A stretch of DNA of 64,000 nt from Hemiscyllium ocellatum (Eukaryota). The DNA is taken from contig NW_026869102.1 of NCBI RefSeq assembly GCF_020745735.1, positions 56,367 through 120,366 of the forward strand, in the 5' to 3' direction. Under the pieces are notes generated by a model. It saw nothing but the letters and a program-made list of their open reading frames with translations. It was not told the DNA's origin and ran no database searches. The translations under genes and the position numbers were made by a program. The first letter of the stretch is position 1. Every line of letters begins with the position of its first letter. Positions 3,100 to 36,060 of the stretch are shown here, one piece after another.

Positions 3100-3600
3100 G
3101 GCTGGGACGACTGCAACATTTAAGGGGCGTTTGGGTGGGTATAGGAATAGGAAGGGTTTGGAGGGATAGAGGCCGGGTGCTGGCAGGTGGGAATGGATTG
3201 GGTTGGGATAACTGGGTCAGCACGGACAGGTTGGACCGAAGGGTCTGTTTCCGTGCTGTACATCTCTATGACTCTAGAGGTACAGGTTCATGGTGGGAAG
3301 GGGAAAGGTTCACAAGGATGTTAGAGGGTCTGAGCTGAAGGGAAGAGGCTGAGGGATGACCCTATAGAGGTTAATAGGGTCATGGATAAGGTGAAGGGTC
3401 AAGGTATTATCCCTCAGGGGGTGGTGAGGGAGGACAAAACTAGAGGGTCACAGGTTAAGGGTGAGAGGGGAAAGGTTCACAAGGATGTTGGAGGGTTTGA
3501 GCTGAAGGGGGGAGGCTGAGGGATAACCTTATAGAGGTTTATAGGGTCATGGGGGGGTCAGTGGGTAAGAACCAGAGGGTCAAAGGTCAAACATTTACAA
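3100..3600 (+). mobile_element. LINE 3'-end fragments (L2/CR1-like), partially tandemly duplicated
   Basis: The tail motif ggtcagcacggacaggttggaccgaagggtctgtttccgtgctgtacatctctatgactcta is present. A repeated roughly 120-bp unit contains aaggttcacaaggatgttrgagggtytgagctgaagggraggctgagggatraccytatagaggtttatagggtcatgg, which corresponds to the RGDLIEVYKIMRGxD region of ORF2. Confidence 0.5.
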
Positions 3601-3649
3601 AGGAACAACTTTTTCACGCGGAGAAGGTGCAAAGAGCTGCCCGAGGAAG

Positions 3650-4335
3650 CGATACAATAAATAACACCAGGAAAAGGCATAGTTTCCGGCCGGTTTTTAA
3701 CCTGTTTGCTGCTATTTTAAACACAACGAGCCTCCTCCCGCCTCCCAACCGCCGCCCGATTTAAATCTGATCAAAGCCCCGCCCTCCTCCCGGCCCGAGC
3801 GCCAGCGCCTCGCCTTCCATTGGCTACCCTCCGGGAGGTGGGCGGGGGTGATTGGTTGCGCGCGCGGGGCATTACCGACGTTGATACGGCAAGAGCAGTG
3901 ACTGGCAACGGGTTTATCCAATCCGATGGGGGAGAAGGGGTAGCCAATGGGAAGCGAGGTTAGGGCCGGGAGTGCGGGTGTTGGGGGGGGGTGAGAGTTG
4001 GAGGCGGCGGGGCCTCAGAGGCCGGACACGCGCGGAGTGCCCAATGGCCGCTGGGCCACGTGATCCGCGGTGAGGCATCCGATTGACGGGCGGCCGGACC
4101 AACCAGAGGCAGGTACTGGGTAAAGGGGCGTTCCTGAGCTGAGCGGCCAATGAGAGCGGTGTGGGGATGCGGCGGAGGACCAATAGGACGAGGCGCTCGC
4201 GCTCGGGGGGGGCGGGGCTTTGGTCAGATTTAAATCGGGCGGCGGTTGGGAGGCGGGAGGAGGCTCGTTGTGTTTAAAATGGCAGCAAACAGGTAAAAAC
4301 CGGCCTCTTACCTGGTGTTATTTATAGTAATCTGA
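3650..4335. promoter_or_regulatory. CpG-island-like core rich in CCAAT boxes, enclosed by about 125-bp inverted repeats. Either a candidate bidirectional NF-Y-type promoter or a TIR-bearing non-autonomous element.
   Basis: Left arm 3650-3775 and right arm 4195-4335 are about 90% reverse-complementary. Each arm carries atttaaat and tttaaa(a). The core 3780-4190 is CpG-dense and has at least 7 CCAAT/ATTGG boxes (3819, 3852, 3918, 3944, 4041, 4147, 4179) and one CACGTG at 4057. The right arm contains ATG (4279) GCAGCAAACAG followed by the donor-like gtaaaa at 4293. Confidence 0.45.
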
Positions 4336-6240
4336 GGTCACTGTACACTACACCCATTATGGTGTCACCATCCAACTATATCCCCTACATTCACATCCAA
4401 ATCATGTATATAAATGACAAATTAGTGGACCCAGCACCGATCCTTGTGGCGCTCCACTGGGCACAGGCCTCCAGTCTGAACAACAACTCTCCACCACCAC
4501 CCTCTGCCTTTCCCTACAGCTCAAACCCTGGCAACATCCATCTTTCCAATAGGAAGGAGATCAGAACTGCATGCAATATTCCAACAGTGGCCTAACCAAT
4601 GTCCTGTCCAGCCACAACATGACCCTCCCAACTCCTATACTTAACACTCTGCCCTACAAAGGAAAGCATACCAAACACCTTCTTCACTATCCTATCCACT
4701 TGGGACCCCACTTTCAGGGAGCTATGAACCTGCACTGTTGTTCTACAACACTCTCGGACCTTACCATTAAGCGTATAGGTCCTGCTAAGATTGGCTTTCC
4801 CCAAAATGCAGCACCTCAAGTTAAACTCCATCTGCCACTCCTCAGCCCACTGGCCCAGCTGATCAAGATCCCATTGTAATCTGAGGTAACCTACTTCACT
4901 GTCCACTACACCTCCAATTATGGTGTCACCATCCAACTATACCTCCTACGTTCACATCCAAATCATTTATATAAATGCCGAAAAGTAGTGGACCCAGCAC
5001 CGATCCTTGTGGTGCTCCACTGGGCACAGGACTCCAGTCTGAACAACAACCCTCCACCGCCACCCTCTGTCTTTCCCTACAGCTCAAACCCTGGCAACAT
5101 CCATCTTTCCAATAGGAAGGAGATCAGAACTGCATGCAATATTCCAACAGTGGCCTAACCAATGTCCTGTCCAGCCACAACATGACCCTCCCAACTCCTA
5201 TACTTAACACTCTGCCCTACAAAGGAAAGCATACCAAACACCTTCTTCACTATCCTATCCACTTGGGACCCCACTTTCAAGGAGCTATGAACCTGCACTG
5301 TTGTTCTACAACACTCTCGGACCCTACCATTAAGCGTATAGGTCCTGCTAAGATTTGCTTTCCCCAAAATGCAGCACCTCACGTTTACCCAAGTTAAACT
5401 CCATCTGCCACTCCTCAGCCCATTGGCCCAGCTGATCAAGATCCCATTGTAATCTGAGGTAACCTACTTCACTGTCCACTACACCTCCAATTATGGTGTC
5501 ACCATCCAACTATACCTCCTACGTTCACATCCAAATCATTGATATAAATGCCGAAAAGTAGTGGACCCAGCACCGATCCTTGTGGCACTCCACTGGGCAC
5601 AGGCCTCCAGTCTGAAAAACATCTCTCCACCGCCACCCTCTGTCTTTCCCTACAGCTCAAACCCTGCCAACATCCATCTTTCCAATAGGAAGGAGATCAG
5701 AACTGCATGCAATATTCCAACAGTGGCCTAACCAATGTCCTGTCCAGCCACAACATGACCCTCCCAACTCCTATACTTAACACTCTGCCCTACAAAGGAA
5801 AGCATACCAAACACCTTCTTCACTATCCTATCCACTTGGGACCCCACTTTCAAGGAGCTATGAACCTGCACTGTTGTTCTACAACACTCTCAGACCTTAC
5901 CATTAAGCGTATAGGTCCTGCTAAGATTGGCTTTCCCCAAAATGCAGCACCTCACGTTTACCCAAGTTAAACTCCATCTGCCACTCCTCAGCCCATTGGC
6001 CCAGCTGATCAAGATCCCATTGTAATCTGAGGTAACCTACTTCACTGTCCACTACACCTCCAATTATGGTGTCACCATCCAACTATACCTCCTACATTCA
6101 CATCCAAATCATTTATATAAATGCCGAAAAGTAGTGGACCCAGCACCGATCCTTGTGACACTCCACTGGGCACAGGCCTCCAGTCTGAAAAACAACTCTC
6201 CACCACCACCCTCTGTCTTCTCCCTTCAAGCCTGTTCTGG
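4320..6240 (-). mobile_element. Tandem array of about 3.3 copies of a 573-bp internal segment of an L2/CR1-like LINE reverse-transcriptase region
   Basis: Minus-strand ORFs 4592-4936 and 5155-5439 translate to DDTIIGGVVDSEVGYLRLQWDLDQLGQWAEEWQMEFN...RIVKKVFGMLSFVGQSVKYRSWEGHVVAGQDIG, which is LINE reverse-transcriptase sequence. Identical plus-strand ORFs start at 4571, 5134 and 5707, giving a period of 563-573 bp. Confidence 0.7.
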
Positions 6241-7030
6241 ATCCAAATGGCTAGTTCTCCCTGTATTCCATGAGATCTAACCTTGCTAACCAGTCTCCCA
6301 TGGGGAACCTTGGGAAACACCTTACTGAAGGCCATATAGATCACGTCCACTGCTCTGCCCTCCTTCGGGACCAACAGGCCTGGGTTCAAATCCCACTTGT
6401 CCCAGAAACTTTTATTAGCGCCTCTGAACAAGCGAATTACCAAACATTGAACCAAATACTAAAATGTACAAGCAAAAGTAAGTAAGAGCATGTTAAGGTC
6501 AAAATGTTAGTGGATGAGCCCCAGCCAGAAGCCAGCTCTTAAATACAACTTACACTCGATCAACTCTGGAGCTATTCCGGCATACCTTTCAAACAAACAT
6601 CACTTCCAGGCCGACACTCTCTGGACGGAGGTGAAGGGAGGAGTATGCTGGCTTGCAACGCAGAGTGATACCAACAGCATGTCCCAATCTCTCTCCACAG
6701 GAACATTTTCCCAAGCCTCCACCACCACCCTCTGTCTTCTACCTTCGAACCAGTTCTGTATCCAAATGGCTAGTTCTCCCTGTATTCCATGAGATCTAAC
6801 CTTGCTAATCAGTCTTCTATGGGGATCCTTGTCGAACGCCTTACTGGAGTCCATATAGATCACATCTACTGCTCTGCCATCATCAGTCTTCTTTGTTGCT
6901 TCTTCAAAAAACTCAATCAAGTTTGTGAGACAGGATTTCCCACGCACAAAGCCATGCTGACTATCCCAAATCAGTCCTTGCCTTTCCAAAGACATGTACA
7001 TCCTGTCCCTCCTCATTCTCTCTAATTTTG
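6240..7030 (-). mobile_element. Two LINE reverse-transcriptase fragments ([17 protein letters not shown]...RRQRVVVE), each interrupted by a roughly 330-bp insert with a tRNA-like segment
   Basis: Minus-strand ORFs 6072-6455 and 6600-7016 contain [40 protein letters not shown]. The insert (antisense 6240-6600) includes ggttcaaatcccacttgtcccag, a tRNA T-arm-like sequence. The inverted counterpart lies at 10230-10860. Confidence 0.65.
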
Positions 7031-7447: not shown

Positions 7448-8340
7448 TCCTTGTTAATCTTTCCCTTTCTCACCTCAAACCTATACCCCTCTAGTTTTGG
7501 CCTCCCCTGAGCAATAGTGCTTGACTGTACACCTTGTATATGACCCCTGTGACCTTTATGAACCTCTATACGTTGCCACCCCCCAGCCTCTTCCCATACC
7601 TCAAAGCCTGACAGCCTCACTTGTAAGTCTTTCCTGAACCCTTTCCAAGTTTAGCAATATCCTTCCTGGAGCAGGGAGACCAGAATCGAACACCGCATTC
7701 CAAATGCGGCCTGATTGTAAGACGTTGGAGCAGAAATTAGGCCATTCAGCCCATCGAGTCTGCTGTGTCAGTTGATCGTGGCTGATGGGTCTTTCAACCG
7801 CATTTTCCTGCTTTCTCTCTGTAACCTTTGATCCCCTTTGGCAATCAAGAACTTATCTATCACTGATTTAAATGTGCCCAATGACCTGGCCTCCATAGAT
7901 TCCCCACTCTCTGGCTGGAAGAAGTTTCTCCTTCTCTCAGTACTACAGGGTCTTCCCTTTAGTCTAAGGCTGTGCCCTTGGGTCCCAGTCTCTCCTGCCA
8001 ATGGGAACGTCTTCCCAACATCCACTCTGTCCAGTCTGGTCAGTATCCTGTAAGTTTCAATCTGATTCCACTTCCCCCTTCTAAAACCCATGTCCCAGTG
8101 TACAGCTGTGAGGTGACCTCCCACCTTCTATACTCCATATCCTGCCCAATAAAGGCCAAATTCGGCCTTTGCTATCCGATCTTACTGCGACTCCACTTTC
8201 AAGGAACAATGAACCTGTACCCCCAGGGGAACACTCCCAGGACGTCACCATTAAGTACATCAGTCATGCCCTGGTTTGCCTTTCCAAAAATGCAACATCT
8301 TACACTTATCTAGATTAAACTCCATCTGCCAATCTGTTCA
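7447..8340 (-). mobile_element. LINE ORF2 C-terminal region fragments, antisense
   Basis: The reverse complement of 7640-7730 encodes ...RPHLECGVRFWSPCSRKDIAKLGKGSGKTYK, matching the LEYCVQFWSPHYRKDVxxLERVQ(R)RFTR region of L2/CR1 ORF2. Confidence 0.5.
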
Positions 8341-8399
8341 AGGTCCTGTTGGACTCTGAACTTTCTTCATTGTTCACTACCCCACCAATTTTGATGCCA

Positions 8400-8870
8400 T
8401 GACCCCTGGACTAAATGCACTGACTCGTAAAGGCAAGTGTACTTAATGCTGCCTTCACTCCATCCTGTGTACCTGTGACCCTGCTTTCAAGGCACTGCCA
8501 ACCCACACCCCATCAAGGACACGTTTGACCAAGTGTGGCATCAAGGAGCCTGGGTAAAACTGGAATCGATGGGGATGGAGAACTTCCCTGGCACATAGGA
8601 GGCCAGTCCTCTCAATTCCAGGACATGCCTGGAGGACCTCCTGAGGATCATGCCCTGGAGCCAACCAGCTTCAGCTGCTTTATCGCTGACCTTGTCTCTG
8701 CTGTAAGGTCAGAAGTGGGGACGTTGGCCAATGAGTGCACAATGTTCAGCAGCTTTCACAACTTCTTAGATACTGAAGCAGTCCAGAAGCAACAAGACCT
8801 GGATTCTGTTCAGGTTTGGGCTGACAAGTGGCAAGTGATATTCGCATTGCACAAGTGCTAGGCAATGACT
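8400..8870 (+). mobile_element. LINE reverse-transcriptase fragment
   Basis: ORF 8535-8861 reads ...FIADLVSAVRSEVGTLANECTMFSS...QQDLDSVQVWADKWQVIFALHKC. This matches the RT motif (M)F(A)DD..., then Q.DLD.I..WA.KWQM.FN..KC. Confidence 0.55.
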
Positions 8871-9019
8871 CTCCTATTGGAAACAATCTAACCACTGCCT
8901 CGTGACATTCGGTGGTGTTGCTATCATAGAATCCCCCGCTACTAACATCCTGGGGGTTACCTTTTATCAGAAGCTGAACTGGACTCTCCATACAAATAAA
9001 AAATGAGGTCTGCAGATGC

Positions 9020-9201
9020 TGGAGATCACAGCTGCAAATGTGTTGCTGGTCAAAGCACAGCAGGCCAGGCAGCATCTCAGGAATAGAGAATTCGACGTTT
9101 CGAGCAAGGGCTTATGCTCGAAACGTCGAATTCTCTATTCCTGAGATGCTGCCTGGCCTGCTGTGCTTTGACCAGCAACACATTTGCAGCTGTGATCTCC
9201 A
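9020..9201. repeat. Perfect 86-bp-arm palindrome (foldback/hairpin repeat) with a 10-nt loop
   Basis: 9020-9105 is the exact reverse complement of 9116-9201 (tggagatcacagctgcaaatgtgttgctggtcaaagcacagcaggccaggcagcatctcaggaatagagaattcgacgtttcgagc, loop aagggcttat). Degenerate members of the same family lie at 31375-31560 and 16335-16400. Confidence 0.85.
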
Positions 9202-9299
9202 TACAAATACTGCAGTTACTCAAACAGATCAGAAACTGGGAATCCTACAGCCAGTAATTCAGCTCCTGGCTTCCCCAAAGCCTGTCTAATGTTTACCAA

Positions 9300-9800
9300 G
9301 TACAAGGTGGGAGTGTGATAGAATATTCCCCACTTGTCTGGATGGCCACAGCTCCAATACTTGAGGCTTGACCCCTAACCTGAACAAAGTAACTTGACTG
9401 GTACCACATCCACACTCTCCACTACCAGCAGCAGTGTGTATCATCTACAAGGTGTACTGCAGGAGTTTGCCAAAGCTCCTGCACCAACACCTTCCAAACC
9501 TGTGGCCCCTTCCATTGAGAAGGACAAGGGCTGCAGATACATGGGAACTCCACCCCCTGCAAGTTCCCCTCTGTGCCCCTCACCATCGAGATTTGGAATA
9601 CATCGCCATTCCTTCAGTGGTGTTGGATCAAAATCCTGGAAATCCTTCCCTCAGGGCATTGTGGGTTTACCTACAGCACATGGACTGCAGTGGTTCAAAG
9701 AGGGAGCTGACCACCATCTTCTCAAGGGGCAATGAGAGATGGCTGGTAAATGCTGGGTCAGCCAGTGGTACTCACATCCAACAAGCTCTCCCTCAGCAGT
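9300..9800 (+). repeat. Unclassified interspersed repeat (SINE-like family). A second copy lies at 29300-29800.
   Basis: 9470-9790 aligns with 29480-29790: ...caccttccaaacc...agaaggacaagggytgcagayacatgggaacyccacc...caagttcccctctg...tggttcaagaaggcagctcaccaccatcttctcaagggcaa...gctgggycagccagtg... Confidence 0.55.
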
Positions 9801-9862
9801 AATGACCCTATTGTTAACTGTTTTTATCTTTTTCTCTCTTTCTCCATCCAGTGCAGTTGACA

Positions 9863-10065
9863 ATGTCTAACCTACCTCCTGCGGATGTGCAGCCCTTTAG
9901 GAAGATGGCCAGTTCCCATCACCGCCGGGTGAAGGTGGTGGTCCGGCTCCGACCCTACCAGTCCACAGAGGATGAGCAGCAGGAGGGCCCCTGTGTGCGT
10001 GGCCTAGGCACCCGCTCGCTGGAACTTGTGAACTGGAGGAGCCGGACAGAATCCATGCAGTACAA
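9863..10065 (+). CDS. KIF22: KIF22 (chromokinesin Kid) coding exon 1. ATG at 9863. GTGAGT donor at 10066.
   Basis: Translates to MSNLPPADVQPFRKMASSHHRRVKVVVRLRPYQSTEDEQQEGPCVRGLGTRSLELVNWRSRTESMQY(K/N). Human KIF22 has VRVAVRLRPFVDG...[27 protein letters not shown]. Confidence 0.8.
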
Positions 10066-10209
10066 GTGAGTGTCCTACAGGTGCCCCTACACTGACAGAC
10101 CCATGCCCACCATCCCACCACCTCCTGGCTGGGACTGATGTGGCTGTAAGGTCAGAACAGAGCACAATTGCAGAGATCCGAGTTAACACTCAGCAGTGAT
10201 AATACCCTT

Positions 10210-11870
10210 CCTCACCATCCTGAGATGGCCAAAGGATACAGTGGGATAGAGATAAATAGATAGATGGATAGGGTGGAGACTTGGCAGAGAAGTGGCAGAT
10301 GGAATTTAATCCTGAAACATCTGGTCACTCTGGGCTGGGCTGTGGGGGCTTGGGAAAACGTTCCTGTGGAGAGAGATTGGGACATGCTGTTGGTATCGCT
10401 CAGCGTTGCAAGCCAGCAGACTCCTCCCTTCACCTCCATCCAGAGAGTGTTGGCCTGGAAGTGATGTTTGTTTGAAAGGTATGCCGGAATAGCTCCAGAG
10501 TTGATCAAGAGTAAGTTGTATTTAAGAGCTGGCTTCTGGCTGGGGCTCATCAGTTCCCCATCCACTAACATTTTGACCTTAACATGCTCTTACTTACATT
10601 TGCTTGTACATTTTAGTATTTGGTTCAATGTTTGGTAATTTGCTTGCTCAGAGGCGCTAATAAAGGTTTCTGGGACAAGTGGGATTTGAACCCAGGCCTG
10701 TTGGTCCCGAAGGAGGGCAGAGCAGTGGACGTGATCTATATGGACTTCAGTAAGGTGTTTCCCAAGGTTCCCCATGGGAGACTGGTTAGCAAGGTTAGAT
10801 CTCATGGAATACAGGGAGAACTAGCCATTTGGATCCAGAACAGGCTTGAAGGGAGAAGACAGAGGGTGGTGGTGGAGAGATGTTTTTCAGACTGGAGGCC
10901 TGTGCCCAGTGGAGTGCCACAAGGATCGGTGCTGGGTCCACTACTTTTCGGCATTTATATAAATGATTTGGATGTGAACATAGGAGGTATAGTTGGATGG
11001 TGACACCATAATTGGAGGTGTAGTGGACAGTGAAGTAGGTTACCTCAGATTACAATGGGATCTTGATCAGCTGTGCCAATGGGCTGAGGAGTGGCAGATG
11101 GAGTTTAACTTGGGTAAACGTGAGGTGCTGCATTTTGGGGAAAGCAAATCTTAGCAGGACCTATACGCTTAATGGTAAGGTCCAAGAGTGTTGTAGAACA
11201 AAAGTGCAGGTTCATAGCTCCTTGAAAGTGGGGTCCCAAGTGGATAGGATAGTGAAGAAGGTGTTTGGTATGCTTTCCTTTGTAGGGCAGAGTGTTAAGT
11301 ATAGGAGTTGGGAGGGTCATGTTGTGGCTGGACAGGACATTGGTTAGGCCACTGTTGGAATATTGCATGCAGTTCTGATCTCCTTCCTATTGGAAAGATG
11401 GATGTTGGCAGGGTTTGAGCTGTAGGGAAAGGCTGAATAGGTGGGGCTGTTTCCCCTGGAGCGTCGGAGACTGAAGGGGTGACTTTATGGAGGTTTATAA
11501 AATCACGATGGGTGTGGATAGGGGCAGTAGGCCAAGTCTTTTCCCTGGGGTGGGGGAGTCCAGAAGTAGAGGTCAGCGGTTTAGGGTGAGAGGGGAAAGA
11601 TATAAAAGGGATCTAAGGGGCAACTGTTTCAGCCAGAGGATGATGCATGTATGGAATGAGCTGCCAGAGGAAGTGGTGGAGGCTGGTACGATTGGAGCAT
11701 TTTAAAAGGCATCTGGATGGGTATATGAATAGGAAGGGTTTGAGGCAAATGGGCCTAGTGCTGACAAATGGGACGAGATTAGGTTAGGCTATTTGTTCGG
11801 GATGGAGCGAAGGGTCTGTTTCCGTGCTGTCCATCTCTCTGACTCTAAGTAGGGATATTATTAGTCATCA
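10210..11870 (+). mobile_element. L2/CR1-like LINE, 3' two-thirds of ORF2 with frameshifts, ending in the conserved tail
   Basis: ORF 10620-11003 contains [21 protein letters not shown]...[16 protein letters not shown]...[24 protein letters not shown] 11063-11347 has RT downstream motifs. 11487-11705 reads GDRGSRPSLFPGVGESRSRGQRFRVRGERYKRDLRGNCFSQRMMHVWNELPEEVVEAGTIGAF. Tail ggtctgtttccgtgctgtccatctctctgactctaa at about 11810-11850. Confidence 0.75.
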
Positions 11871-12685
11871 GAACCCTGAAGGGCTCTTGTTATAGTGTGA
11901 TGGTGCCTTGGGTGTGGTTGGAGGGGAAGGGTTTCTCAGTTTCATTTTTCTAATATTTGGGGAAAGAAAACACTGTCTTCCTTTTGGAATCTAACTACAT
12001 ATCTGCAGGTTGTGGGAGGGTGCACCCTCTCTTCATATTCTTAAGGAATCACTTCAGCGGCAGATACCTGCTCTTTGAGCATCCGGTGTGGAGGAAGCAA
12101 GGCTTTGTAGGTCTTCCTCATGTAGGTAAGTAGCAAGCTCACCTCTTCACGTTTATGTCTACAGCTGGGTGTCCACGTGATGACAACGGAGGTGTTTGTG
12201 AGCACCAGTCACATTTCACTTGTCTGATTTAACTTGCTGAGCTGGACACTTGTGGCAAATTACATTTGGAAACGGTGATGGCTTTTTGCAAAAGGACGTT
12301 ATAAAAGTGTTCATGATTACTGTCCTGAATTTGTACTGAACCTTTCTGAAGTTCTTCAGACCAGCTGCGCGCTGTTTTCCCCAGCCAACGTTATTTTAAT
12401 TCTATTTCTGTCGTTAGTCTTTGGTTTTGGTTCATGTTGCAATCACCCCAATGGGCAGTTGTTGCTTTTAGTTTGGGTTATTTAAAGAAATGGAGTTTGG
12501 GTTCCTCTGCACTCCTGAGTTTGCCTGTGGACAGGGAAAGGTGGAAATTTGGCATTTGTGCTAAACCCTCGATTTACAATGGTAAATCACACAGACGTTT
12601 ACTGCCTAATTCAACATTAATGTATCAGTCTGTGAAACAGCTGGACCCTTCAGTGTACTAAACCTCACCTCCTCCTGTCTCTCAG

Positions 12686-12815
12686 CTTCGATGCTTTTTA
12701 TGGTGATGACACCTCACAGCTGGAATTCAGTATGTGAATTCAGTGAAACCGATCCTATCCCATGTCCTGAATGGACAGAATGCCAGTGTCTTTGCCTATG
12801 GCCCTACGGGAGCAG
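12686..12815 (+). CDS. KIF22: KIF22 coding exon 2 (FDAFYG...[17 protein letters not shown]-loop N-terminal half). Contains an internal 1-nt frame discontinuity.
   Basis: Acceptor ctctcag at 12679-12685. Frame 1 reads [11 protein letters not shown]. The conserved continuation [32 protein letters not shown] is in frame 3. Donor GTGAGT at 12816. Human has [44 protein letters not shown]. Confidence 0.8.
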
Positions 12816-13483
12816 GTGAGTGAGTGAGTGAGTGACTGTCCACTGTCCTGCCTCTTTCCTTAGTGACCAGCCCCCTCACAGAGCCGACAGCCTTAAAACC
12901 TGTCCTTTAACATTTAGACTAAAATGTCATGTTGCATTGTCAAACACACTTGCTGCACACCAGAAAATAGACAGGCAGGGAGGTTAAGGTCATGAAGGAC
13001 ATCAGTGAATCTGTGTCAACAGGACACAGCGATAGCATTCACGGCTGTTCCTTTGGGAAATTAATAACTGTTTGATTCTGGCCTTGAAACAAAACTCTCT
13101 CAATTAACTTCTCTCCCCAATTATTGTCCTTCACTGTTACCTGTCTAGTTAAGAATGTGCAGGGTTTTTGTGTAAAGGAAGTCAGTTAGTGACCGTTCAG
13201 CACAGTACCCTGTCAGGGCTCTTGAAGAGCTGATCTCCTACTCTCCTGGGTTATTACAACCTAGTTAGTTTAGCTTATAGGTATCAGTGTTATGTTAAAC
13301 TGTTACATCAAGGGGTTAACCTAAACTGTCTGTTTGAGGTATTTTTATTCCAGACTACCAAAGGGTACGATCTCTGGGACAAATCGAGAGGCTTACAGGT
13401 TGAGTCCACGAGGGATTCCCTGGGCCATCTCCGATCTGTCCATATTCCCCTCTCCTGTCTTTATTTGTTTTTCTCATTGATAG

Positions 13484-14072: not shown

Positions 14073-14282
14073 GTGTTGGATCTACTGGAGACCACGCACC
14101 AAGACTTGGCGATTCGAGAGGACCAAGACAAGAACATCTTCGTCCCCGACCTGACACAGCAGCGCATCACCAGCTTCGTGGAGTTTGAGCAGTTCTTTCT
14201 GCCAGCCACACAAAGACGGACCACAGCCAGCACCAAGTTGAATTGTCGGTCCAGTCGCAGCCACTCTGTGCTCCTGATTAAG
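14073..14282 (+). CDS. KIF22: KIF22 coding exon 4 (switch I)
   Basis: Translates to [70 protein letters not shown]. Human has [70 protein letters not shown]. Acceptor ctctcag. Donor gtccag at 14283. Confidence 0.9.
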
Positions 14283-14659
14283 GTCCAGCTATGTCGGGTC
14301 CCTTTGTTGCTCTTTCAATTATCTTTCTGGTGCTCACACCCTTGTGGTCTCTCTCTCTCTCGGCACACTTTCTTTCTCTTTCATACTGTAAATGCTGTAT
14401 CAATAAGTGCTACATTAAGGGCTTTAACCACATCGCTCAGGCCTGAGGCTGAAAGATCACACTCACTCTCTCCAGTTGTGCACAGTGTGTAACTCCACTT
14501 CCCAACCACCCTCCACCACCTTGCTGTCTTCCCTCAGTGCTCTGTGTCTCTCTCTGTCTCTCCCCGTGCCCCTGTCCCTCCCTCTGCCAGAATGAATGTT
14601 GCTTGGTTAGGACGCTCAGCCACCACTCTTGCTCTGATCGAATACTGGTTCTGTTGCAG

Positions 14660-15779: not shown

Positions 15780-17539
15780 GTAAACCTCACCCCTAAACCG
15801 GTTCCTCTCCTCAGGCAGGATCTCTGTGGGAAGGTTCCTGTAGCAGTAGGAGGCACAGTTCTGGGATAACATTCCTGATTGAAGGTGGAGAGTGATGTCG
15901 TTGATTCAGAGACTAGGCCCCTGAATTGAAATCGAGGAAACAATAATGGCATGAGCTAGCAATGATGTAGATAATGGCAAACATTTTGGAATGTACATGG
16001 GGGAAACGGTCACCCTTGTTCATTGGTCTTGGGCAATGAAATGACCAACGTGAAAGCTAGTCCAACCATGGCTAATCAGGGGAATTACATCCAAGGAGGG
16101 GGCATACACATTGGCTAAAGTAAGTATCAGACCTGAAGGCTGGGACCAGGTTAGATTTCTGCAAAGCAGGGTGAAGGAATCGATTACCAGATGAGATGAA
16201 GCTTGTGGGGAACATGGAAACTGGTTGTAAAAGCTGTGCAAAGAAAGGTTTAGTGACGGCCAGTGTAGGTCCCTTCGAGTCAGACGGCAATTAATGAGGA
16301 AGAAAGATGACAGACCAATTAATACAGAATGCACAAACACACAACTTGCTGGCGAAACTGTGCAGGTCAGGCAGCATCAGTGAGAGTGAACAGGGTTCCA
16401 CTAACCCTTCAGAACTGATAGCAGGGAGGTAAATGATGCCAGGGAGTGGGGCAGGAAGGAGTGAGCAGATAGGGGGGGGACAGAATTTAGAGCAACAAGT
16501 GGGTAGGCAAAGGGATTGTTGGTAAGGTAGGGAAGCGGAGAAGGAGGATGGGTAATAATGAGGACGGAGTGGGTAAAAATGGGGTGACTGTGTGCTGGAG
16601 GGTGGCCATTAGGGTTAGTGGCTGGGTCATAGACATGCTCTGAAATAGTCAACCTCAATGAAGGTTCTCCGGTCACCAGGTAAAAGGGAAGTTGGTGTTC
16701 TTCAACTTGCATCGGGTCTGACTGCAGTGCTGCAGTGTGCTGGAGACTGGAACATTGGCCAGGAGACACTGGGGTGTTGAACTGGCAGGCAACTCCAAGC
16801 GGAGTTGTTTTTATGGACAGAACATGGGTGTTTTACAAGGCAGTCACCAGTCTGTGTTTGGGGACACCAATGTAGAGCAGACTGTGTTGTAAGCAGCAAA
16901 TACAGTAGACCAGATTCAACAAAGTGCAGGGAAATGACTCTGCACCTGGAAGGTATGTCTGAGACTGTGGGTAATGAGGAGGGAGGAAGGTAAAATTGGC
17001 AAGGGTTGTACCTCCTGCAGTAGTATGGGGAGGTGTTGGTCATGGAGGAGGAGTGGACTGGAGGGAACAGTCCCTGTGGAATGCTGACCAGGGAGATGGC
17101 AAGAGGTGGGGGAAATGGCAGCTTTTGTTCCTCTGGGACACAGCCTGGTGGAGTAGAAAGTGAGGGTTTGGGGAGGGAGGGGTGGGGTGTGGACTATATT
17201 GTTATCAGGGGGAAGGGGGAAACATCCAGGGGTAAGGGCAGGTGTCTGGGAAATGGATCAGACATGGCTAAGGGCCCTGTCCTCAATATGGTTGAGGAGA
17301 AAGGTGGACATTTCTGAGCCCCACTGCAGAATGTAGCACCATCGATACGGTGGGAGTTGATGGGTTTGTTCATGGATATCAGACAGTCTGGTTCATTTAG
17401 CCTCAGCTCTGCAGCCAACGTCTGGGTTTGTGTTTCAGATCTTCACCATTCAGTTCTTCATTTCAATCTGCATTTTGGTTCTGCCTTCACAAAGGAAGGC
17501 CTAAATCATGTCCCGAAAATGTTGGGGAGGGCAAGGTCA

Positions 17540-20500
17540 AGTGAGAGGGAGGGACGGACGGATGGATGGAGGGAAATCTGTATTACTACGGCAATGGGTG
17601 TTGGGGAAATTGATGGGATTAAAGGCCAATAAAATGCTCCGGGCCTGATCATCTCCAACCCGGCACTGAGTTGTCAAACCCTTCTGTCCAACTCCTCCAC
17701 ACTGATCGCGTTTACCAATCTGCCTGTACCTTACCCACATCCCTCGGAACCTTTCCCATTCACGTACCTGTGTAAATGTCTCTGAAATATTGTAACTGTG
17801 TCTGCATTTACCACGGCCTCTCGCAGTTCATTCCATATCCACACCGTTCTCTGTGGAGTGGGGGTGAAGTTGTCCCTTTTGGAATCTCTCCATACCCACC
17901 TTAAGCCGATGCCCTCTGGTTTTGTACTCCCCTGCACTATGGGCAAGACTGTTGCTACTCACCTTGTCTGTGTCCCTCATAACCTTAAATACCTCTAAGG
18001 TCAGTCCTCAATCTTTCTGTCTCCCAGTGAAAAAGTCCCAGCCCATCCCATCTCTCCTTATAATTCAAATCCTCCATTCAGGTAACATGCTGGTAAATTT
18101 GTTTCTGTACTTTACACAATCCTTCCTATAACAGCAACCAGAATTGTATGCAGTACTCCAAAAGTAGCTTCACCAATGTCCGGTCCAGCCGCAACGTGCC
18201 AACTTCTGCACTCGGTGCTCTGACCAACAAAGGCAAACATGTCGAACATAGAACATTACCTGGACACAGATCTCTCTGCTCATCGACATGACCAAGAATC
18301 TTACCATTCACCCAGTACTTTGCATTCCGGTTACTCCGACCAAAGTGAATCACCTCATGTTTGTCTGCATTAAACTCCATTTTCCACCTCTCAGACCAGC
18401 TCTGCAGCTTATCTATGCCTCTCTGTAACCTACAACATCCTTCAGCACTATCCACAACTCCACCGACCTTGGTGTCACCTGCACACTTACTAACCCACCC
18501 TTCTATACTGCCAACCAGGTCGTTTATAAAAATGACAAACAGCAGTGGACCCAACACCGACCCTTACGGTACACCACTGGTAACTGAGTTCCAGGATGAA
18601 CATTTCCCATCAACCACCACCCTCTGTCTTCTTTCAGCAAGCCAATTACTGATCCAAACTACTGTATCTCCCACAATCCCATTCCTCCGCAATTTGTACA
18701 ACAGCCGACTGTGGGGAACCTTATCGAATGCCTTGCTGAAATCCATATACACCACATCAACCGGTTTACTCTCATCTACCTGTCTGGTCACCTTCTCAAA
18801 GTACTCAATGAGGTTTGTGAGGCATGACCTACCCTTCACATAACTGTGCTGACTATCCCTAATCAAATTCTTTTCTAGATGATTATAAATCCTATCTCTT
18901 CTAACCTTTTCCAACACTTTACCAACAACTGCAGTGAGGCTCACTGGTCTATAATTACCAGGGTTGTCTCTACTCCCCTTCTTGAACAGGGGAACCACAT
19001 TTGCTCTCCTACAATCTTCTGGCACTATTCCTGTAGACAATGACGATTTAAAGATCAATGCCCAAGGCTCGGCAATCTCCTCCCTGGCTTCCCAGATGAT
19101 CCTAGGATAAAACCCATCCGGCCCAGGGGACTTATCTATTTTCACACACTGCAGGATTTCTAATACCTCTTCCTTGTGAACCTCAATCCCACCTAGTCTA
19201 GTAGCCTGTATCTCAGTATTCTCCTCGACAACATTGTCATTTTCTCGAGTGAATACTGTCGAAAAATATTCATTTAGTGCTTTCCCTATCTCCCCTGACT
19301 CGTCACACAGCTTCTCACTACTCTCCTTGATAGGCCGTAATCTAACACTCGGAATTCTTTTCATTCCTTAAATACCTATAGAAAGCCTTCGGGTTTATCC
19401 TGATCCTATCCACCAACAACTTCTCATGTCTCCTCCTGGCTCTTCTGAGCTCTCTCTTTAGGTCTTTCCTGGCTACCTTGTATCCCTCAAGTGCCCTAAC
19501 TGAGCCTTCACATCTCATCCGAACATAAGCTGCCTTCTTTCTCTTGACCAGAGATTCCACTTCCTTTGTAAACCATGGCTCCTGTGCACTACAGCTTCCT
19601 CCCTGTCTGACAGGTACATACCTATCTCGGACACACAGGAGCATTTCCTTGAATAGCTCCACCTTTCTAACGTGCCTATCCTCTGCAGGTTCCTTCCCCA
19701 TCCTATGCTTCCTAAATCTTGCCTAATCGCATTGTAATTGCCTTTCCCCCAGCTGTAGCTCTTGCCCAGAGGTATACACCTATCCCTTTCTATCACTACA
19801 GGAAACATAACAGAATTGTGATCGCTATCACCAAAGTGCTCACCTACTTCCAAGTCTAACACCTGGCTGGGCTCATTACCCAGTACCAAATCTAATGTGG
19901 CCTCACCCCTTGTTGGCCTGTCTACGTACTGTCAGGAAGCCCTCCTGCACACACTGGACAAAAACTGACTCCTCTATAGTCGCTCTTGCTCTCTCATTGG
20001 CAATATACAGAAAACTCCCAACAGGGTGACCTCTCCTTTCCTGTTTCTAACCTCAGCCCATACTACCTCAGTTGACAAGTCCCTAAACATCATTCCTGCA
20101 ACTGTAATACTGTCTTTGACCAACAATGCCACACCTCCCCCTCTTTTACCATCTTCTCTGTTCTTACTGAAACATCTAAATCCTGGAACCTGCACCAACC
20201 ATTCCTGTCCCAGCCAAATGCTGCCTTCACTCTCTACTTATGATGCCATTTCCAAGACATTATTACCTGGACCCCTAGGTGTCTTTGTTCATCAACACTT
20301 CCTGTTATCTGTGTCAGCCTTGCCCTGATTTACCTTGCAAAAATGCAATAGCTCACATTTATCTAAGATAAACTCTGTCTGCCTCTACTTGGCCTAGCTG
20401 AGAAAGATCCCACTGTACTCCTGGATAACCTTCACTGTCCACTATACCCTCAATCTTGGTGTCACCTGCAAAAATATTAACTGCGTCTCCTGTATTCTCA

Positions 20501-26164: not shown

Positions 26165-28360
26165 AACAGTCAAACAGGGTGGTACACTGGCTCAGGGGTT
26201 AGCTCTGCGACCTCCCAGCACGAGGGATCCAGGTTCAATTCCAGGGGAATTGGCCCCACTACATGACCCACCGTGTTCGGGGTTGGGGGGAATTGGCCCC
26301 ACTACATGACCCACCGTGTTCGGGGTTGGGGGGAATTGGTCCCACTACATGACCCACCGTGTTTGGGGTTGGGGGGAATTGGCCCCACTACATGACCCAC
26401 CGTGTTCGGGGTTGGGGGGAATTGGCCCCACTACATGACCCACCGTGTTCGGGGTTGGGGGGGATTGGCCCCACTACATGACCCACCGTGTTCGGGGTTG
26501 GGGGGGATTGGCCCCACTACATGACCCACCGTGTTTGGGGTTGGGGGAATTGGTCCCACTACATGACCCACCGTGTTTGGGGTTGGGGGGGATTGGCCCC
26601 ACTACATGACCCACCATGTTCGGGGTTGGGGGGAATTGGCCCCACTACATGACCCACCGTGTTTGGGGTTGGGGGAATTGGTCCCACTACATGACCCACC
26701 GTGTTTGGGGTTGGGGGGAATTGGCCCTGCTACATGACCCACCGTGTTTGGGGTTGGGGGAATTGGCCCCACTACATGACCCACCGTGTTCGGGGTTGGG
26801 GGGAATTGGCCCCACTACATGACCCACCGGGTTGGGGGGAATTGGCCCCGCTACATGACCCACCGTGTTCGGGGTTGGGGGGAATTGGCCCTGCTACATG
26901 ACCCACCGTGTTCGGGGTTGGGGGGGATTGGCCCCACTACATGACCCACCGTGTTCGGGGTTGGGGGGGATTGGCCCCACTACATGACCCACCGTGTTTG
27001 GGGTTGGGGGAATTGGTCCCACTACATGACCCACCGTGTTTGGGGTTGGGGGGGATTGGCCCCACTACATGACCCACCATGTTCGGGGTTGGGGGGAATT
27101 GGCCCCACTACATGACCCACCGTGTTTGGGGTTGGGGGAATTGGTCCCACTACATGACCCACCGTGTTTGGGGTTGGGGGGAATTGGCCCTGCTACATGA
27201 CCCACCGTGTTTGGGGTTGGGGGAATTGGCCCCACTACATGACCCACCGTGTTCGGGGTTGGGGGGAATTGGCCCCACTACATGACCCACCGGGTTGGGG
27301 GGAATTGGCCCCGCTACATGACCCACCGTGTTCGGGGTTGGGGGAATTGGCCCCACTACATGACCCACTGTGTTCGGGGTTGGGGGGAATTGGCCCTGCT
27401 ACATGACCCACTGTGTTTGGGGTTGGGGGGAATTGGCCCCACTACATGACCCACCGTGTTTGGGGTTGGGGGAATTGGCCCTGCTACATGACCCACCGTG
27501 TTCGGGGTTGGGGGGAATTGGCCCCGCTACATGACCCACCATGTTCGGGGTTGGGGGGAATTGGCCCTGCTACATGACCCACCGTGTTTGGGGTTGGGGG
27601 GAATTGGCCCCACTACATGACCCACCGTGTTTGGGGTTGGGGGAATTGGCCCCACTACATGACCCACCGTGTTTGGGGTTGGGGGGAATTGGCCCCACTA
27701 CATGACCCACCGTGTTTGGGGTTGGGGGAATTGGCCCCACTACATGACCCACCGTGTTCGGGGTTGGGGGGGATTGGTCCCGCTACATGACCCACCATGT
27801 TTGGGGTTGGGGGGAATTGGCCCTGCTACATGACCCACCATGTTCGGGGTTGGGGGGAATTGGTCCCACTACATGACCCACCGTGTTTGGGGTTGGGGGG
27901 AATTGGCCCCACTACATGACCCACTGTGTTTGGGATTGGGGGGAATTGGCCCCACTACATGACCCACCGTGTTCGGGGTTGGGGGGAATTGGCCCCACTA
28001 CATGACCCACCGTGTTCGGGGTTGGGGGGAATTGGCCCCGCTACATGACCCACCGTGTTTGGGGTTGGGGGGAATTGGCCCTGCTACATGACCCACCGTG
28101 TTCGGGGTTGGGGGGAATTGGTCCCACTACATGACCCACCGTGTTTGGGGTTGGGGGGAATTGGCCCTGCTACATGACCCACCGTGTTTGGGGTTGGGGG
28201 GAATTGGCCCCGCTACATGACCCACCGTGTTTGGGGTTGGGGGGAATTGGCCCCACTACATGACCCACCGTGTTCGGGGTTGGGGGGAATTGGTCCCACT
28301 ACATGACCCACCGTGTTCGGGGTTGGGGGGATTGGCCCTGCTACATGACCCACAGCATGG
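26165..28360 (+). repeat. 43-bp minisatellite of about 50 copies, seeded by a truncated tRNA-derived SINE head (26165-26250)
   Basis: Unit ccactacatgacccaccgtgttcggggttggggggaattggcc, with variants t/c and g/t, tiles 26250-28355 continuously. It is preceded by the tRNA-like head ggtggtacactggctcaggggttagctctgcgacctcccagcacgagggatccaggttcaattccagg. The unit resembles the SINE internal segment gtgaattggccatgctaaattgcccgtagtgttaggtaagggg. Confidence 0.85.
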
Positions 28361-31246: not shown

Positions 31247-31374
31247 CTCTGCCTGTTCCTACAACAAGCTCCAAATTCAAACAGGGAGGTCCTGACTGCT
31301 CATGAAGAAACTGTGATTGATAACTGTCTTCTGGCAAGTGTGTGCAGTCTGGAGAGTGTGGTGTGTCAAGTGTA

Positions 31375-31560
31375 TGGTGCTGGATTAGCACAGCAGTTCA
31401 GGCAGCATCTGAGGAGCAGGAGAGTTCACATTGAAGAGCTGACGAAGGGCGGGCTTATGGCCGAGATGTCAATTCTCCTCCTGCTCTTTGGGTGCTGCCT
31501 GACCTGCGCTTTTCTAGCACCACACTCGACTCTGATCTCCAGTCCTTGTTCTTCCCTCTG
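31375..31560. repeat. Degenerate member of the foldback/hairpin repeat family seen at 9020-9201
   Basis: ggtgctggattagcacagcagttcaggcagcatctgaggagcaggagagttcacattgaagagctgacgaagggcgggcttatggccgagatgtcaattctcctcctgctctttgggtgctgcctgacctgcgcttttctagcaccac. The two arms are imperfectly complementary and share cagcagg(t/c)caggcagcatc with the 9020 element. Confidence 0.6.
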
Positions 31561-31770: not shown

Positions 31771-32599
31771 AACTTGTTGTACCATTAAATGGCCAGTGAA
31801 ACTTGTCCACAGCGCTGCCAATGCTTGCTGCACACTGATGGGAACATAGTGTGGAGTCATCCACAGAAACACACCTGTCCTCCTGTGTGCCAGTTCCAAC
31901 TTGTGGACAGATTTCCTTGACCCCCCTTCCTCTCTCTCACCCCCACCCCCTTCCAGCACCACTCATCCAGAATCTGGTTTCCAGCATCTGCAGTCCTTGT
32001 TTATACATCATCTAAACCTGCTGTGCTTTTCCAGCAGCAAAGTGACTCTCCTCACTTTGACCTTGGGCTCCTTGATATCAGGGATGGTCACTCTCCACTC
32101 TCCCTGTGTAATCCAGCTGTTTTACCCATGCTCCCCATCAGTTATCTCAGAGGGTGGGTCTCCCCTCACCACCTTGTCCAAACCTTTCTCCTACTCCCAC
32201 CCTGTGACAGCACGAATGATAATGAAGAGTGGACACAATAGGTTTGCAAAAACAGGCCTTTAATCACTTGGCTGCAACACTTCCAAACTTGCTGCTCAAC
32301 TGGTTATCCTGAGTTTTCAGGGTTTGACCCTGTTTCCTGCTTCTGCTGAGGTGCAGTTCAGTGCTGGAGAGCAGGGTGGGGAGTGCAGACCTTGTAACCT
32401 CTGCTCCTCACTGTTTCCTTGTCACACACAATACCACACAGGAGACAGGAGTGTCACTCGATCAGACCAGTGGTGTTCAGTGATCCCTCGTACAGCACGA
32501 CCACAGAGGGCTCTGTAACAGGCAGAGACAGTGTGTTAGGAGCTGTCTCACCCCGGCCACCTCTACCCAGTTTCAGGTTATCTGGTGAACTGAGAGGTC

Positions 32600-34399: not shown

Positions 34400-36060
34400 C
34401 TGTCCTCACGAGGTCAGGGAGCAGGGACAGTGTCTGGGGGAAGAGCCCCCTCCCTCAGACAGGGAGCAGGGACAGTGTCCGGGGTGGGGTTAACCCCCTC
34501 CCTCAGACAGGGAGCAGGGACAGTGTCCGGGGTGGGGTTAACGCCCTCCCTCAGACAGGGAGCAGGGACAGTGTCCGGGGGAAGAGCCCCCTCCCTCAGA
34601 CAGGGAGCAGGGACAGTGTCCGGGGTGGGGTTAACCCCCTCCCTCAGACGGGGAGCAGGGACAGTGTCTGGGGGGGAAGAGCCCCCTCCCTCAGACAGGG
34701 AGCAGGGACAGTGTCCGGGGTGGGGTTAACCCCCTCCCTCAGACAGGGAGCAGGGACAGTGTCTGGGGGGGGGAAGAACCCCTTCCCTCAGACAGGGAGC
34801 AGGGACAGTGTCTGGGGGGGGGGAAGAACCCCTTCCCTCAGACAGGGAGCAGGGACAGTGTCTGGGGGGGGAAGAACCCCTTCCCTCAGACAGGGAGCAG
34901 GGACAGTGTCCGGGGTGGGGTTAACCCCCTCCCTCAGACAGGGAGCAGGGAATGTGTCCAGGGTGGGGTTAACCCCCTCCCTCAGACAGGGAGCAGGGAA
35001 TGTGTCCAGGGTGGGGTTAACCCCCTCCCTCAGACAGGGAGCAGGGACAGTGTCCGGGGTGGGGTTAACCCCCTCCCTCAGACAGGGAGCAGGGACAGTG
35101 TCCGGGGGAAGAGCCCCCTCCCTCAGACAGGGAGCAGGGACTGTGTCCGGGGTGGGGTTAACCCCCTCCTTCAGACAGGGAGCAGGGACTGTGTCCGGGG
35201 TGGGGTTAAAGCCCTCCCTCAGACAGGGAGCAGGGACAGTGTCCGGGGGAAGAGCCCCCTCCCTCAGACAGGGAGCAGGGACAGTGTCCGGGGTGGGGTT
35301 AACCCCCTCCCTCAGACAGGGAGCAGGGACTGTGTCCGGGGGAAGAGCCCCCTCCCTCAGACAGGGAGCAGGGACTGTGTCCGGGGTGGGGTTAACCCCC
35401 TCCCTCAGACAGGGAGCAGGGACGGTGTCTGGGGGAGGAGCCCCCTCCCTCAGACAGGGAGCAGGGAATGTGTCCGGGGTGGGGTTAACCCCCTCCCTCA
35501 GACAGGGAGCAGGGACAGTGTCCGGGGTGGTGTTAACCCCCTCCCTCAGACAGGGAGCAGGGAATGTGTCCGGGGTGGGGTTAACCCCCTCCCTCAGACA
35601 GGGAGCAGGGAATGTGTCCGGGGTGGGGTTAACCCCCTCCCTCAGACAGGGAGCAGGGAATGTGTCCGGGGTGGGGTTAACCCCCTCCCTCAGACAGGGA
35701 GCAGGGAATGTGTCCGGGGTGGGGTTAACCCCCTCCCTCAGACAGGGAGCAGGGAATGTGTCCAGGGTGGGGTTAACCCCCTCCCTCAGACAGGGAGCAG
35801 GGACTGTGTCCGGGGTGGGGTTAACCTCCTCCCTCAGACAGGGAGCAAGGACAGTGTCCGGGGGAGGAGCCCCCTCCCTCAGACAGGGAGCAGGGACTGT
35901 GTCCGGGGTGGGGTTAACCCCCTCCCTCAGACAGGGAGCAAGGACTGTGTCCGGGGTGGGGTTAGCCCCCTCCCTCAGACAGGGAGCAAGGACAGTGTCC
36001 GGGGGAGGAGCCCCCTCCCTCAGACAGGGAGCAGGGACAGTGTCTGGGGTGGGGTGGGGT
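34400..36060. repeat. Minisatellite of about 35 copies with 45- and 48-bp units
   Basis: Units acagggagcagggacagtgtccgggggaagagccccctccctcag (45 bp) and acagggagcaggga(c/a)(a/t)gtgtccggggtggggttaaccccctccctcag (48 bp). The 48-bp type contains the perfect palindrome GGGGTTAACCCC. The ORFs 34288-36087 (+) and 34788-36116 (-) are artefacts of the 3n period. Confidence 0.9.

Follow-up and report, generated by a model that had tools for sequence, protein, structure and literature searches.

Insertions of Penelope-like elements (PLEs) are strongly 5′-truncated and often carry an inverted, likewise 5′-truncated copy placed head-to-head, which gives rise to inverted repeats; a tail of 30-40 bp is found at the 3′ end of just one of the inverted copies, and duplications of 8-10 bp (in rotifers) or microhomology at the 5′ junction have been described (PMC3846280, PMC8557442). 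Minimal hammerhead motifs (min-HHRs) occur in the terminal repeats (pLTRs) of PLEs and are widespread in the genomes of fish, coelacanth and frog (Cervera & De la Pena 2014, PMC4209133). Many of their genomic copies are single motifs in truncated PLEs, and pairs are found 100-700 bp apart on opposite strands (PMC4209133). The locus described here, a palindrome at positions 9020-9201 of the 64,000-nucleotide stretch of DNA that we analyzed (the window), resembles PLE insertions with inverted pseudo-LTRs (Evgen'ev & Arkhipova; Arkhipova et al. 2013; Craig et al. 2021) in its 5′ truncation and head-to-head inverted copy, and also in its one-sided 3′ extension, short duplication and junction microhomology, and it may share with them a hammerhead motif in the terminal repeat. 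It differs from them in that no ORF or direct pLTR lies between the fragments, so that the whole insert is a 182-bp near-complete palindrome.

Twin priming of 5′-inverted L1 insertions was reportedly described by Ostertag and Kazazian in 2001. In L1 twin priming two 3′ ends of the target serve as primers, one at the 3′ end of the RNA and one internally, with microhomologies at the junctions, a duplication flanking the insert, and inverted and direct segments lying 5′ end to 5′ end (Kojima 2010, PMC2912911), and the history that we propose for the palindrome is alike in all these respects. However, in L1 one segment follows the other along the RNA and they hardly overlap, whereas those of the palindrome represent nearly the same 87-116 nt, and the palindrome has a T-rich terminus and no poly(A), unlike L1. 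A further comparison is with MADE1 and the mir-548 family, in which palindromic MITEs gave rise to miRNA genes (Piriyapongsa & Jordan 2007, PMC1784062). As here, the repeat copies are short near-complete palindromes that can form a long hairpin if transcribed, but MADE1 is a Tc1/mariner-type DNA element, whereas our insert has unequal ends, a 14-bp duplication and homology to a retroelement.

We propose, with a probability of about 60%, that the palindrome is a recent insertion of a PLE tail, consisting of two head-to-head copies and generated by target-primed reverse transcription into an old LINE. Read in this way, it is a young example of an already known type of retroelement insertion.

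Anatomy and age of the insertion

An insertion of 211 bp (8999-9209) has the palindrome at its core; its parts and surroundings are as follows.

8300-9850, plus strand: host of the insertion, the 3′ part of a decayed LINE ORF2 and its tail, recognized from the translation of the joined flanks, homologues and reverse transcriptase (RT)-family context
8985-8998: left copy of the target-site duplication TCTCCATACAAATA, a 14-bp exact direct repeat
8999-9019, minus strand: one-sided extension AAAAATGAGGTCTGCAGATGC of 21 nt, which reads GCATCTGCAGACCTCATTTTT on the minus strand
9020-9106, minus strand: left arm of 87 nt, a copy of the repeat module in minus-strand sense whose 5′ end lies at the center
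9107-9114, plus strand: spacer AGGGCTTA of 8 nt
9107-9127, plus strand: 3′ two-thirds of a minimal hammerhead motif, A-GGGC-UUAU-GCUC-GAAA-CG-U-C, read directly
9115-9201, plus strand: right arm of 87 nt, the second module copy in plus-strand sense, ending ...GATCTCCA
9196-9209: right copy of the target-site duplication TCTCCATACAAATA, a 14-bp exact direct repeat

The two arms were found to be 100% complementary by both a repeat search and a script, with 0 mismatches in 2 x 87 nt. The perfect 182-bp palindrome reported in the initial annotation is therefore real as to its sequence, and the 86-bp arms and 10-nt loop given there are the same structure without the closing A-T pair being counted. 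It is by far the longest inverted repeat of the window, the runners-up being 37-38 nt long at 71-73% and located within a minisatellite. Folding of the single strand yielded -121 kcal/mol as DNA and -183 kcal/mol as RNA. The z score was approximately -29 against 200 dinucleotide shuffles, and as none of the shuffles folded as well, chance is excluded. The RNA of a single module copy showed no unusual stability on its own (z = -0.1). Alignment of the copies revealed that the 8-nt spacer is not a separate loop sequence but the extra 5′ end of the right-hand copy, which is 8 nt longer than the left one at the center. It aligns with GGGCTTATGG in an older inverted pair of the window and with GGGTCTCGAA in Mobula, and it comprises a bulged A together with the 5′ strand and the loop of hammerhead helix II.

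Deletion of 8999-9209 restored the sequence ...QKLNWTLHTNTAVTQTDQKLGIL... and the joined-flank peptide ...GVTFYQKLNWTLHTNTAVTQTDQKLGIL... When this peptide was compared with 1.8 billion representative proteins, LINE fragments were matched, and homologues of the LINE ORF2 C terminus (QKLNWTxHINTVATRAGQRLGIL) aligned across the rejoined junction without a gap. This colinearity indicates that the target held the 14 bp once and that 197 bp of new DNA were added. The empty site before insertion would read ...CTCTCCATACAAATACTGCAG...

The ends of the insertion are unlike each other. By script, the 21 nt at 8999-9019 have no complementary partner on the right side; their homologues are the ...TCCAGCATCTGCAGT... 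ends seen in further module copies, both from the window and from Mobula. The left copy has a complete 3′ terminus, including this extension, that adjoins the duplication, and the right copy stops at an internal position 21 nt short of the 3′ terminus. The right arm ends in 6 nt (9196-9201, TCTCCA) with which the right duplication copy begins and which represent a microhomology; a match of this length between the end of the right copy and the target is expected by chance about once in 4096. The two termini of the insertion, AAAAATGAGG... on the left and ...GATCTCCA on the right, are not complementary. Neither the flanking direct repeat nor the unpartnered 21 nt had been mentioned in the initial annotation. 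Several features typical of PLE insertions are thus present. The 5′-truncated inverted copies lie head-to-head with an offset of 8 nt, an arrangement also seen at 31336-31553, and a 3′ tail is found on the left side only, although at 21 nt it is shorter than the published 30-40 bp. The exact duplication is short, with 6 nt shared with the end of the right arm as microhomology, and its 14 bp (or 8 bp plus 6 of microhomology) compare with the 8-10 bp reported in rotifers.

All six CpGs of the palindrome are intact, in flanks whose CpG observed/expected ratio is 0.05-0.35. Together with the mismatch-free arms and the exact duplication, this argues for a young insertion, and statistically its divergence from the source should be below roughly 1-2%. 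The youth suggested for this copy is therefore supported.

No match at gathering level to any Rfam family was obtained anywhere in the window. The palindrome itself gave sub-threshold scores with generic hairpins, namely mir-4861 (40.3 bits, gathering score 100) and mir-1252 (39.8 bits, gathering score 70). Thus, it matches no curated microRNA or other structured-RNA family at gathering score, and there is no sign that it is a functional hairpin gene. Cruciform formation, behavior as a deletion hotspot and the production of small RNAs, all raised in the initial annotation, are purely putative here, and a role as a small-RNA precursor or fragile site is conceivable in principle. In the same putative sense, replication slippage or deletion could occur at an 87-bp perfect inverted repeat near KIF22, which could also yield double-stranded RNA if transcribed.

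The repeat module and its possible hammerhead remnant

The two arms represent the final ~110 nt (~95-116 nt) of a dispersed repeat module (116 nt on the minus strand, 9114-8999). The module, read on the strand ending ...TCCAGCATCTGCAGACCTCATTTTT, also occurs in single orientation, both in the window and outside it, where we found two copies in a Mobula locus (L030) and one in a Hypanus locus (L031). The membership of the palindrome in a dispersed repeat family, assumed in the initial annotation, is supported by these copies. The related features of the window are listed below.

16296-17040, minus strand: 3′ end of a longer related element, with the module at 16296-16420 and a GIY-YIG-like frame at ~16626-17040
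31336-31553: older head-to-head inverted pair with ~69% arm identity, a 34-nt spacer and decayed CpGs
31439-31445: CTGACGA hammerhead box within the older pair
31950-32003 (31950 approximate) and 32017-32059, plus strand: short single-orientation 3′ fragments of the module

Two of these regions had been named before as degenerate members of the palindrome family. That around 31336-31553 is indeed an older, decayed inverted pair, whereas 16296-16420 is related but present in a single orientation and does not form a palindrome. The module copies have the blocks GATGCTGCCTGACCTGCTG, CCAGCA and TCCAGCATCTGCAG in common. The comparison within this genome rests on five copies, all of them in the 64-kb window; they end ..CCAG(CATCTGCAG)TCCTYRYTT-like and start at differing positions of the module, with the exact 3′ end fixed for the palindrome alone. 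The older copies have no recognizable duplication. Of the 82 columns that can be compared between the palindrome and the older pair, 12 differ, symmetrically in both arms, and the centers of the two (spacers of 8 and 34 nt) lie at different module coordinates; independent construction of each pair from a source in single orientation would lead to this pattern. Since single-orientation copies are found in rays and in the longer element at 16296-17040, the single orientation of the module appears to be ancestral.

We searched for the module and for the palindromic form more widely. An nhmmer search with an arm profile detected no further copies in the window, and the palindromic form was absent from ~80 kb of DNA of Scyliorhinus torazame, Mobula, Hypanus and one further ENA assembly. 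Pattern scans of metagenome, prokaryotic-genome and viral collections with the arm core GCACAGCAGNNCAGGCAGCATC returned nothing, or chance matches of 22-26 nt in bacterial contigs, and literature searches with strings of the arm sequence returned nothing or unrelated primers. No tRNA-like head was found for the module, and among the LINE copies of the window, checked as potential partners, none ends in it. The best named matches of a 266-aa RT ORF of the window came from Scyliorhinus torazame, Mobula and Hypanus, none exceeding 78% identity, which marks the window as elasmobranch DNA. The minus-strand segment 16296-17600 is a 5′-truncated copy of the longer element and adjoins the 3′ end of a CR1-like LINE (RT ORF 18564-19364). 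In the Mobula locus (OY992610.1), a truncated U4 snRNA-like sequence is present on the minus strand at 17989-18070 (58.7 bits against a gathering score of 46) and is probably a U4 pseudogene or retrocopy.

The center of the palindrome carries a partial, hammerhead-like motif. In the segment 9107-9127, helix II is preceded by a bulged nucleotide, and both the G10.1-C11.1 pair and the palindromic 15.2-16.2 pair can be recognized. The palindrome lacks the CUGANGA box; the homologous place is occupied by CTGACGA-A in the older pair (31439-31446) and by CTGATGA-A in the Mobula locus. When the copies are combined, they provide, in order, C3-A9, one unpaired nucleotide, helix II, G12A13A14 with A15.1, the 15.2-16.2 pair, U16.1 and C17, and the full motif reconstructed across copies reads CUGAUGA-A-GGGCUUAUGCCC-GAAACGUC. 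This is a composite drawn from homologous copies, those other than the palindrome having decayed GAAAC/GUC. A descriptor scan of the window detected such motifs at the palindrome only, with ~0.3 occurrences of the 3′-half motif per 37 kb expected by chance. Neither the 64-kb window nor the ~80 kb of DNA from other elasmobranchs yielded an intact full hammerhead, and the Rfam hammerhead models gave no match. The order of elements is that of the min-HHRs of PLEs, i.e., CUGANGA, an unpaired nucleotide, helix II closed by G10.1-C11.1, GAAA, the palindromic 15.2-16.2 pair, U and H17 (PMC4209133). Helix II is 4 bp long in the palindrome, compared with the 6-8 bp typical of min-HHRs (PMC4209133). Ribozyme activity is excluded for either arm, since the 5′ catalytic box is missing from both copies in the palindrome.

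The longer element provides a second possible link with PLEs. Between 200 and 330 nt upstream of the module at 16296-16420, on the same strand, lies a decayed frame, ..NLVYCICCLQHSLLYIG.., with GIY-X11-YIG spacing (LVY-X11-YIG). The GIY-YIG-like peptide had no match in Pfam or PDB sequence searches, and no PLE RT was identified. The assignment to PLEs is thus based on motifs, and mobilization by a PLE enzyme would be in keeping with them.

Proposed origin and alternative explanations

The insertion may have been formed as follows. A staggered cut of the target, 14 nt apart, would expose two 3′ ends. The plus-strand nick after ...TACAAATA would prime cDNA synthesis at the T/U-rich 3′ end of the RNA, yielding the left arm with its 21-nt terminus, and the other target strand, ending ...TGGAGA-3′, would anneal to an internal UCUCCA and prime a second cDNA, yielding the right arm. 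The two cDNAs, unequal by 8 nt at their far ends, would then be joined by a template jump or by fill-in, the difference becoming the apparent loop. We infer this order of priming events from the structure of the two ends. Both arms would have been copied from one template in a single event and so be identical at birth, and for arms born identical in a young insertion, perfect identity calls for no homogenizing process. The event would represent a PLE counterpart of L1 twin priming in which both cDNAs cover nearly the same short template.

A snap-back mechanism, in which the second arm is generated by self-priming, was considered and rejected. The strand end ...GAGCATAAGCCCT has no terminal complementarity with which to prime on itself, and such an origin cannot supply 21 nt that are found on one side only.

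It may be that the symmetry was inherited rather than generated at this site, the insertion being a 5′-truncated retro-copy of a source that was already a hairpin, in a non-autonomous foldback family with a palindromic master. The duplication, the microhomology and the one-sided 21 nt are explained equally well by simple 5′ truncation, both long module copies of the window (9020-9201 and 31336-31553) are inverted pairs, the arms of the older pair both seem to reach the 3′ terminus, and the short single-orientation fragments could be heavily 5′-truncated copies of a hairpin RNA. Nevertheless, the arms of such a master would have to have stayed identical throughout a divergence of more than 15%, by a mechanism of which we saw no trace, the old pair having decayed freely, and two recent events would be needed where one suffices. 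The symmetric differences between the two pairs (12/82 columns), their unlike centers (8- and 34-nt spacers) and the single-orientation copies, both in rays and in the longer element at 16296-17040, favor pairs that are built anew over a copied palindromic master, which we consider unlikely, although with five copies compared in this genome a high-copy family of ready-made hairpins is conceivable.

Another explanation retains the anatomy of the proposed PLE insertion but attributes it to the machinery of a CR1/L2-type LINE, acting by twin priming either on the LINE's 3′ tail or on that of a partner SINE, with the hammerhead-like motif being coincidental. Twin priming of LINEs does place one end at the 3′ terminus of the RNA and the other internally, frequently with microhomology, and L1 duplications peak at 14-16 bp (PMC2912911). 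Moreover, the window is rich in CR1-like LINEs, and the Pfam search did not confirm a GIY-YIG domain. In the classical form, however, the two segments are adjacent, non-overlapping parts of the RNA, and here, although internal priming with microhomology and a duplication are in evidence, they overlap by 87 nt. No LINE 3′ end in the window carries the module, which for its part has, across its copies, all the conserved positions of the hammerhead core in order and, in one copy, a GIY-X11-YIG frame upstream. LINE machinery thus seems an improbable agent.

The near-complete palindrome also resembles MITEs such as MADE1, and a recent cut-and-paste insertion of a palindromic DNA transposon (a MITE or foldback element, for instance a hAT-like one) could be read: with the overlapping 6 nt counted as part of the element, a duplication of 8 bp, TACAAATA, is left. 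This is very improbable, as the insert has no terminal inverted repeats at its ends, with the left 21 nt being unpartnered, and the exact repeat is 14 bp long. In addition, a reading with a TA duplication adds two codons to the frame of the host LINE, against the alignment, and the arms match single-orientation copies that are apparently 5′-truncated and have similar 3′ ends.

An artefact of assembly or polishing, either a fold-back chimeric read or homogenization of the arms by mis-mapped reads, has in its favor that the tandem and inverted structures of PLEs are known to trouble assembly (PMC3846280, PMC8557442) and that a collapsed consensus would yield perfect identity. Yet the insert is bounded by an exact duplication and a colinear LINE reading frame results when its flanks are joined, the arms differ in extent at the center and at the outer ends in a manner that makes biological sense, and both match a real repeat, whereas a chimeric join would duplicate unique flank and not a module of a repeat family. 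We regard an artefact as highly improbable. The same holds for an old insertion with arms kept identical by intra-element gene conversion or hairpin mismatch repair, which perfect arm identity alone supports: the homogenization envisaged in the initial annotation finds no echo in the other inverted pair, 22 kb away, which has decayed to ~69% arm identity with no ongoing arm-to-arm correction evident, and arm-to-arm conversion would not have protected the six intact CpGs or the 14-bp duplication.

Perfect short palindromes in shark and ray genomes can be footprints of PLEs and do not necessarily represent DNA transposons, hairpin RNA genes or errors of assembly, from which they are distinguished by the combination of a target duplication, a one-sided tail and a hammerhead remnant. 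The mismatch-free copy with intact CpGs suggests that the element family was recently active in this genome. A bolder idea, which we find decidedly doubtful, is that in this lineage very short head-to-head pairs of pLTR fragments are not dead-end by-products but make up a self-propagating, non-autonomous 'retro-MITE' family mobilized by PLE enzymes, symmetric since each copy is rebuilt from one strand. If true, long perfect hairpins would be spread through the genome by this family, that in the 5′ region of KIF22 among them, and these would be sources of endo-siRNA or miRNA precursors as well as fragile sites. The general interest of the palindrome is low, with some value for the annotation of shark and ray genomes.

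The KIF22 locus and its neighborhood

The palindrome had been placed about 660 bp upstream of the KIF22 start codon, and we found the ATG at 9864, 663 bp downstream of it. The ATG exon (9864-10067) encodes MSNLPP...RVKVVVRLRPY... and is followed by a GT donor after 10067. The identity of the gene is supported by downstream motor-domain exons with kinesin motifs, whose best database matches are KIF22 proteins at 60-68% identity. Among the matches listed for the motor-domain query, KIF22 came from tetrapods, teleosts and invertebrates only, with none longer than about 520 aa, and a search for shark KIF22 orthologues with the exon-1 peptide gave no match.

A polypyrimidine tract and a CAG (9849-9851) precede the ATG exon. 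The sole CpG island in the first 12 kb of the window is at 3600-4200 (CpG observed/expected 0.9-1.05, GC 58-67%); situated ~5 kb upstream of the palindrome, it is a candidate promoter or non-coding first exon of KIF22. Given these two features, we infer that the palindrome probably sits in a 5′ intron of KIF22, not in the core promoter.

The segment 1106-2540 is a mosaic partial duplicate of downstream sequence. In it, 1106-1412 matches 11595-11926 (87%), 1423-1952 matches 12709-13238 (92%), 1955-2167 matches 14084-14298 (95%), including the SSRSH kinesin exon, and 2191-2540 matches 36636-37000 (89%), the 5′ part of a minus-strand ORF (35962-37056). From these matches, it looks like a collapsed copy of KIF22 and its neighbor. 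Exon 2 of KIF22 (12687-12820) has a frame change at 12729-12730, with two extra bases compared with coelacanth KIF22, and runs into a stop when read straight through; the upstream duplicate (1423-1545) carries the same bases. The exon portion shows essentially no difference between the two copies, against ~92% identity in their flanks. The frame change could be explained by a pseudogene, by gene conversion or by a consensus error common to both copies.

Three tandem partial LINE copies (4503-5081, 5071-5654 and 5644-6722) are 95-98% identical, in inverted orientation, to a LINE segment at 10342-11431, which closely follows the KIF22 ATG exon. Together they form a large young inverted repeat that encloses both this exon and the palindrome and could mediate inversion.

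A 30-bp minisatellite with the consensus TGGGACGTCCCGCTGGTCGGGTATAGGAGA (~893 copies, 87% match) extends from 37200 to the window end at 64000; the very long ORFs that it produces on the two strands are spurious. Within the region of the KIF22 gene, an array at 26244-28353 consists of 50 copies of a 43-bp unit, and another at 34415-36055 consists of 35 copies of a 48-bp unit with an internally palindromic core, GGGGTTAACCCC.
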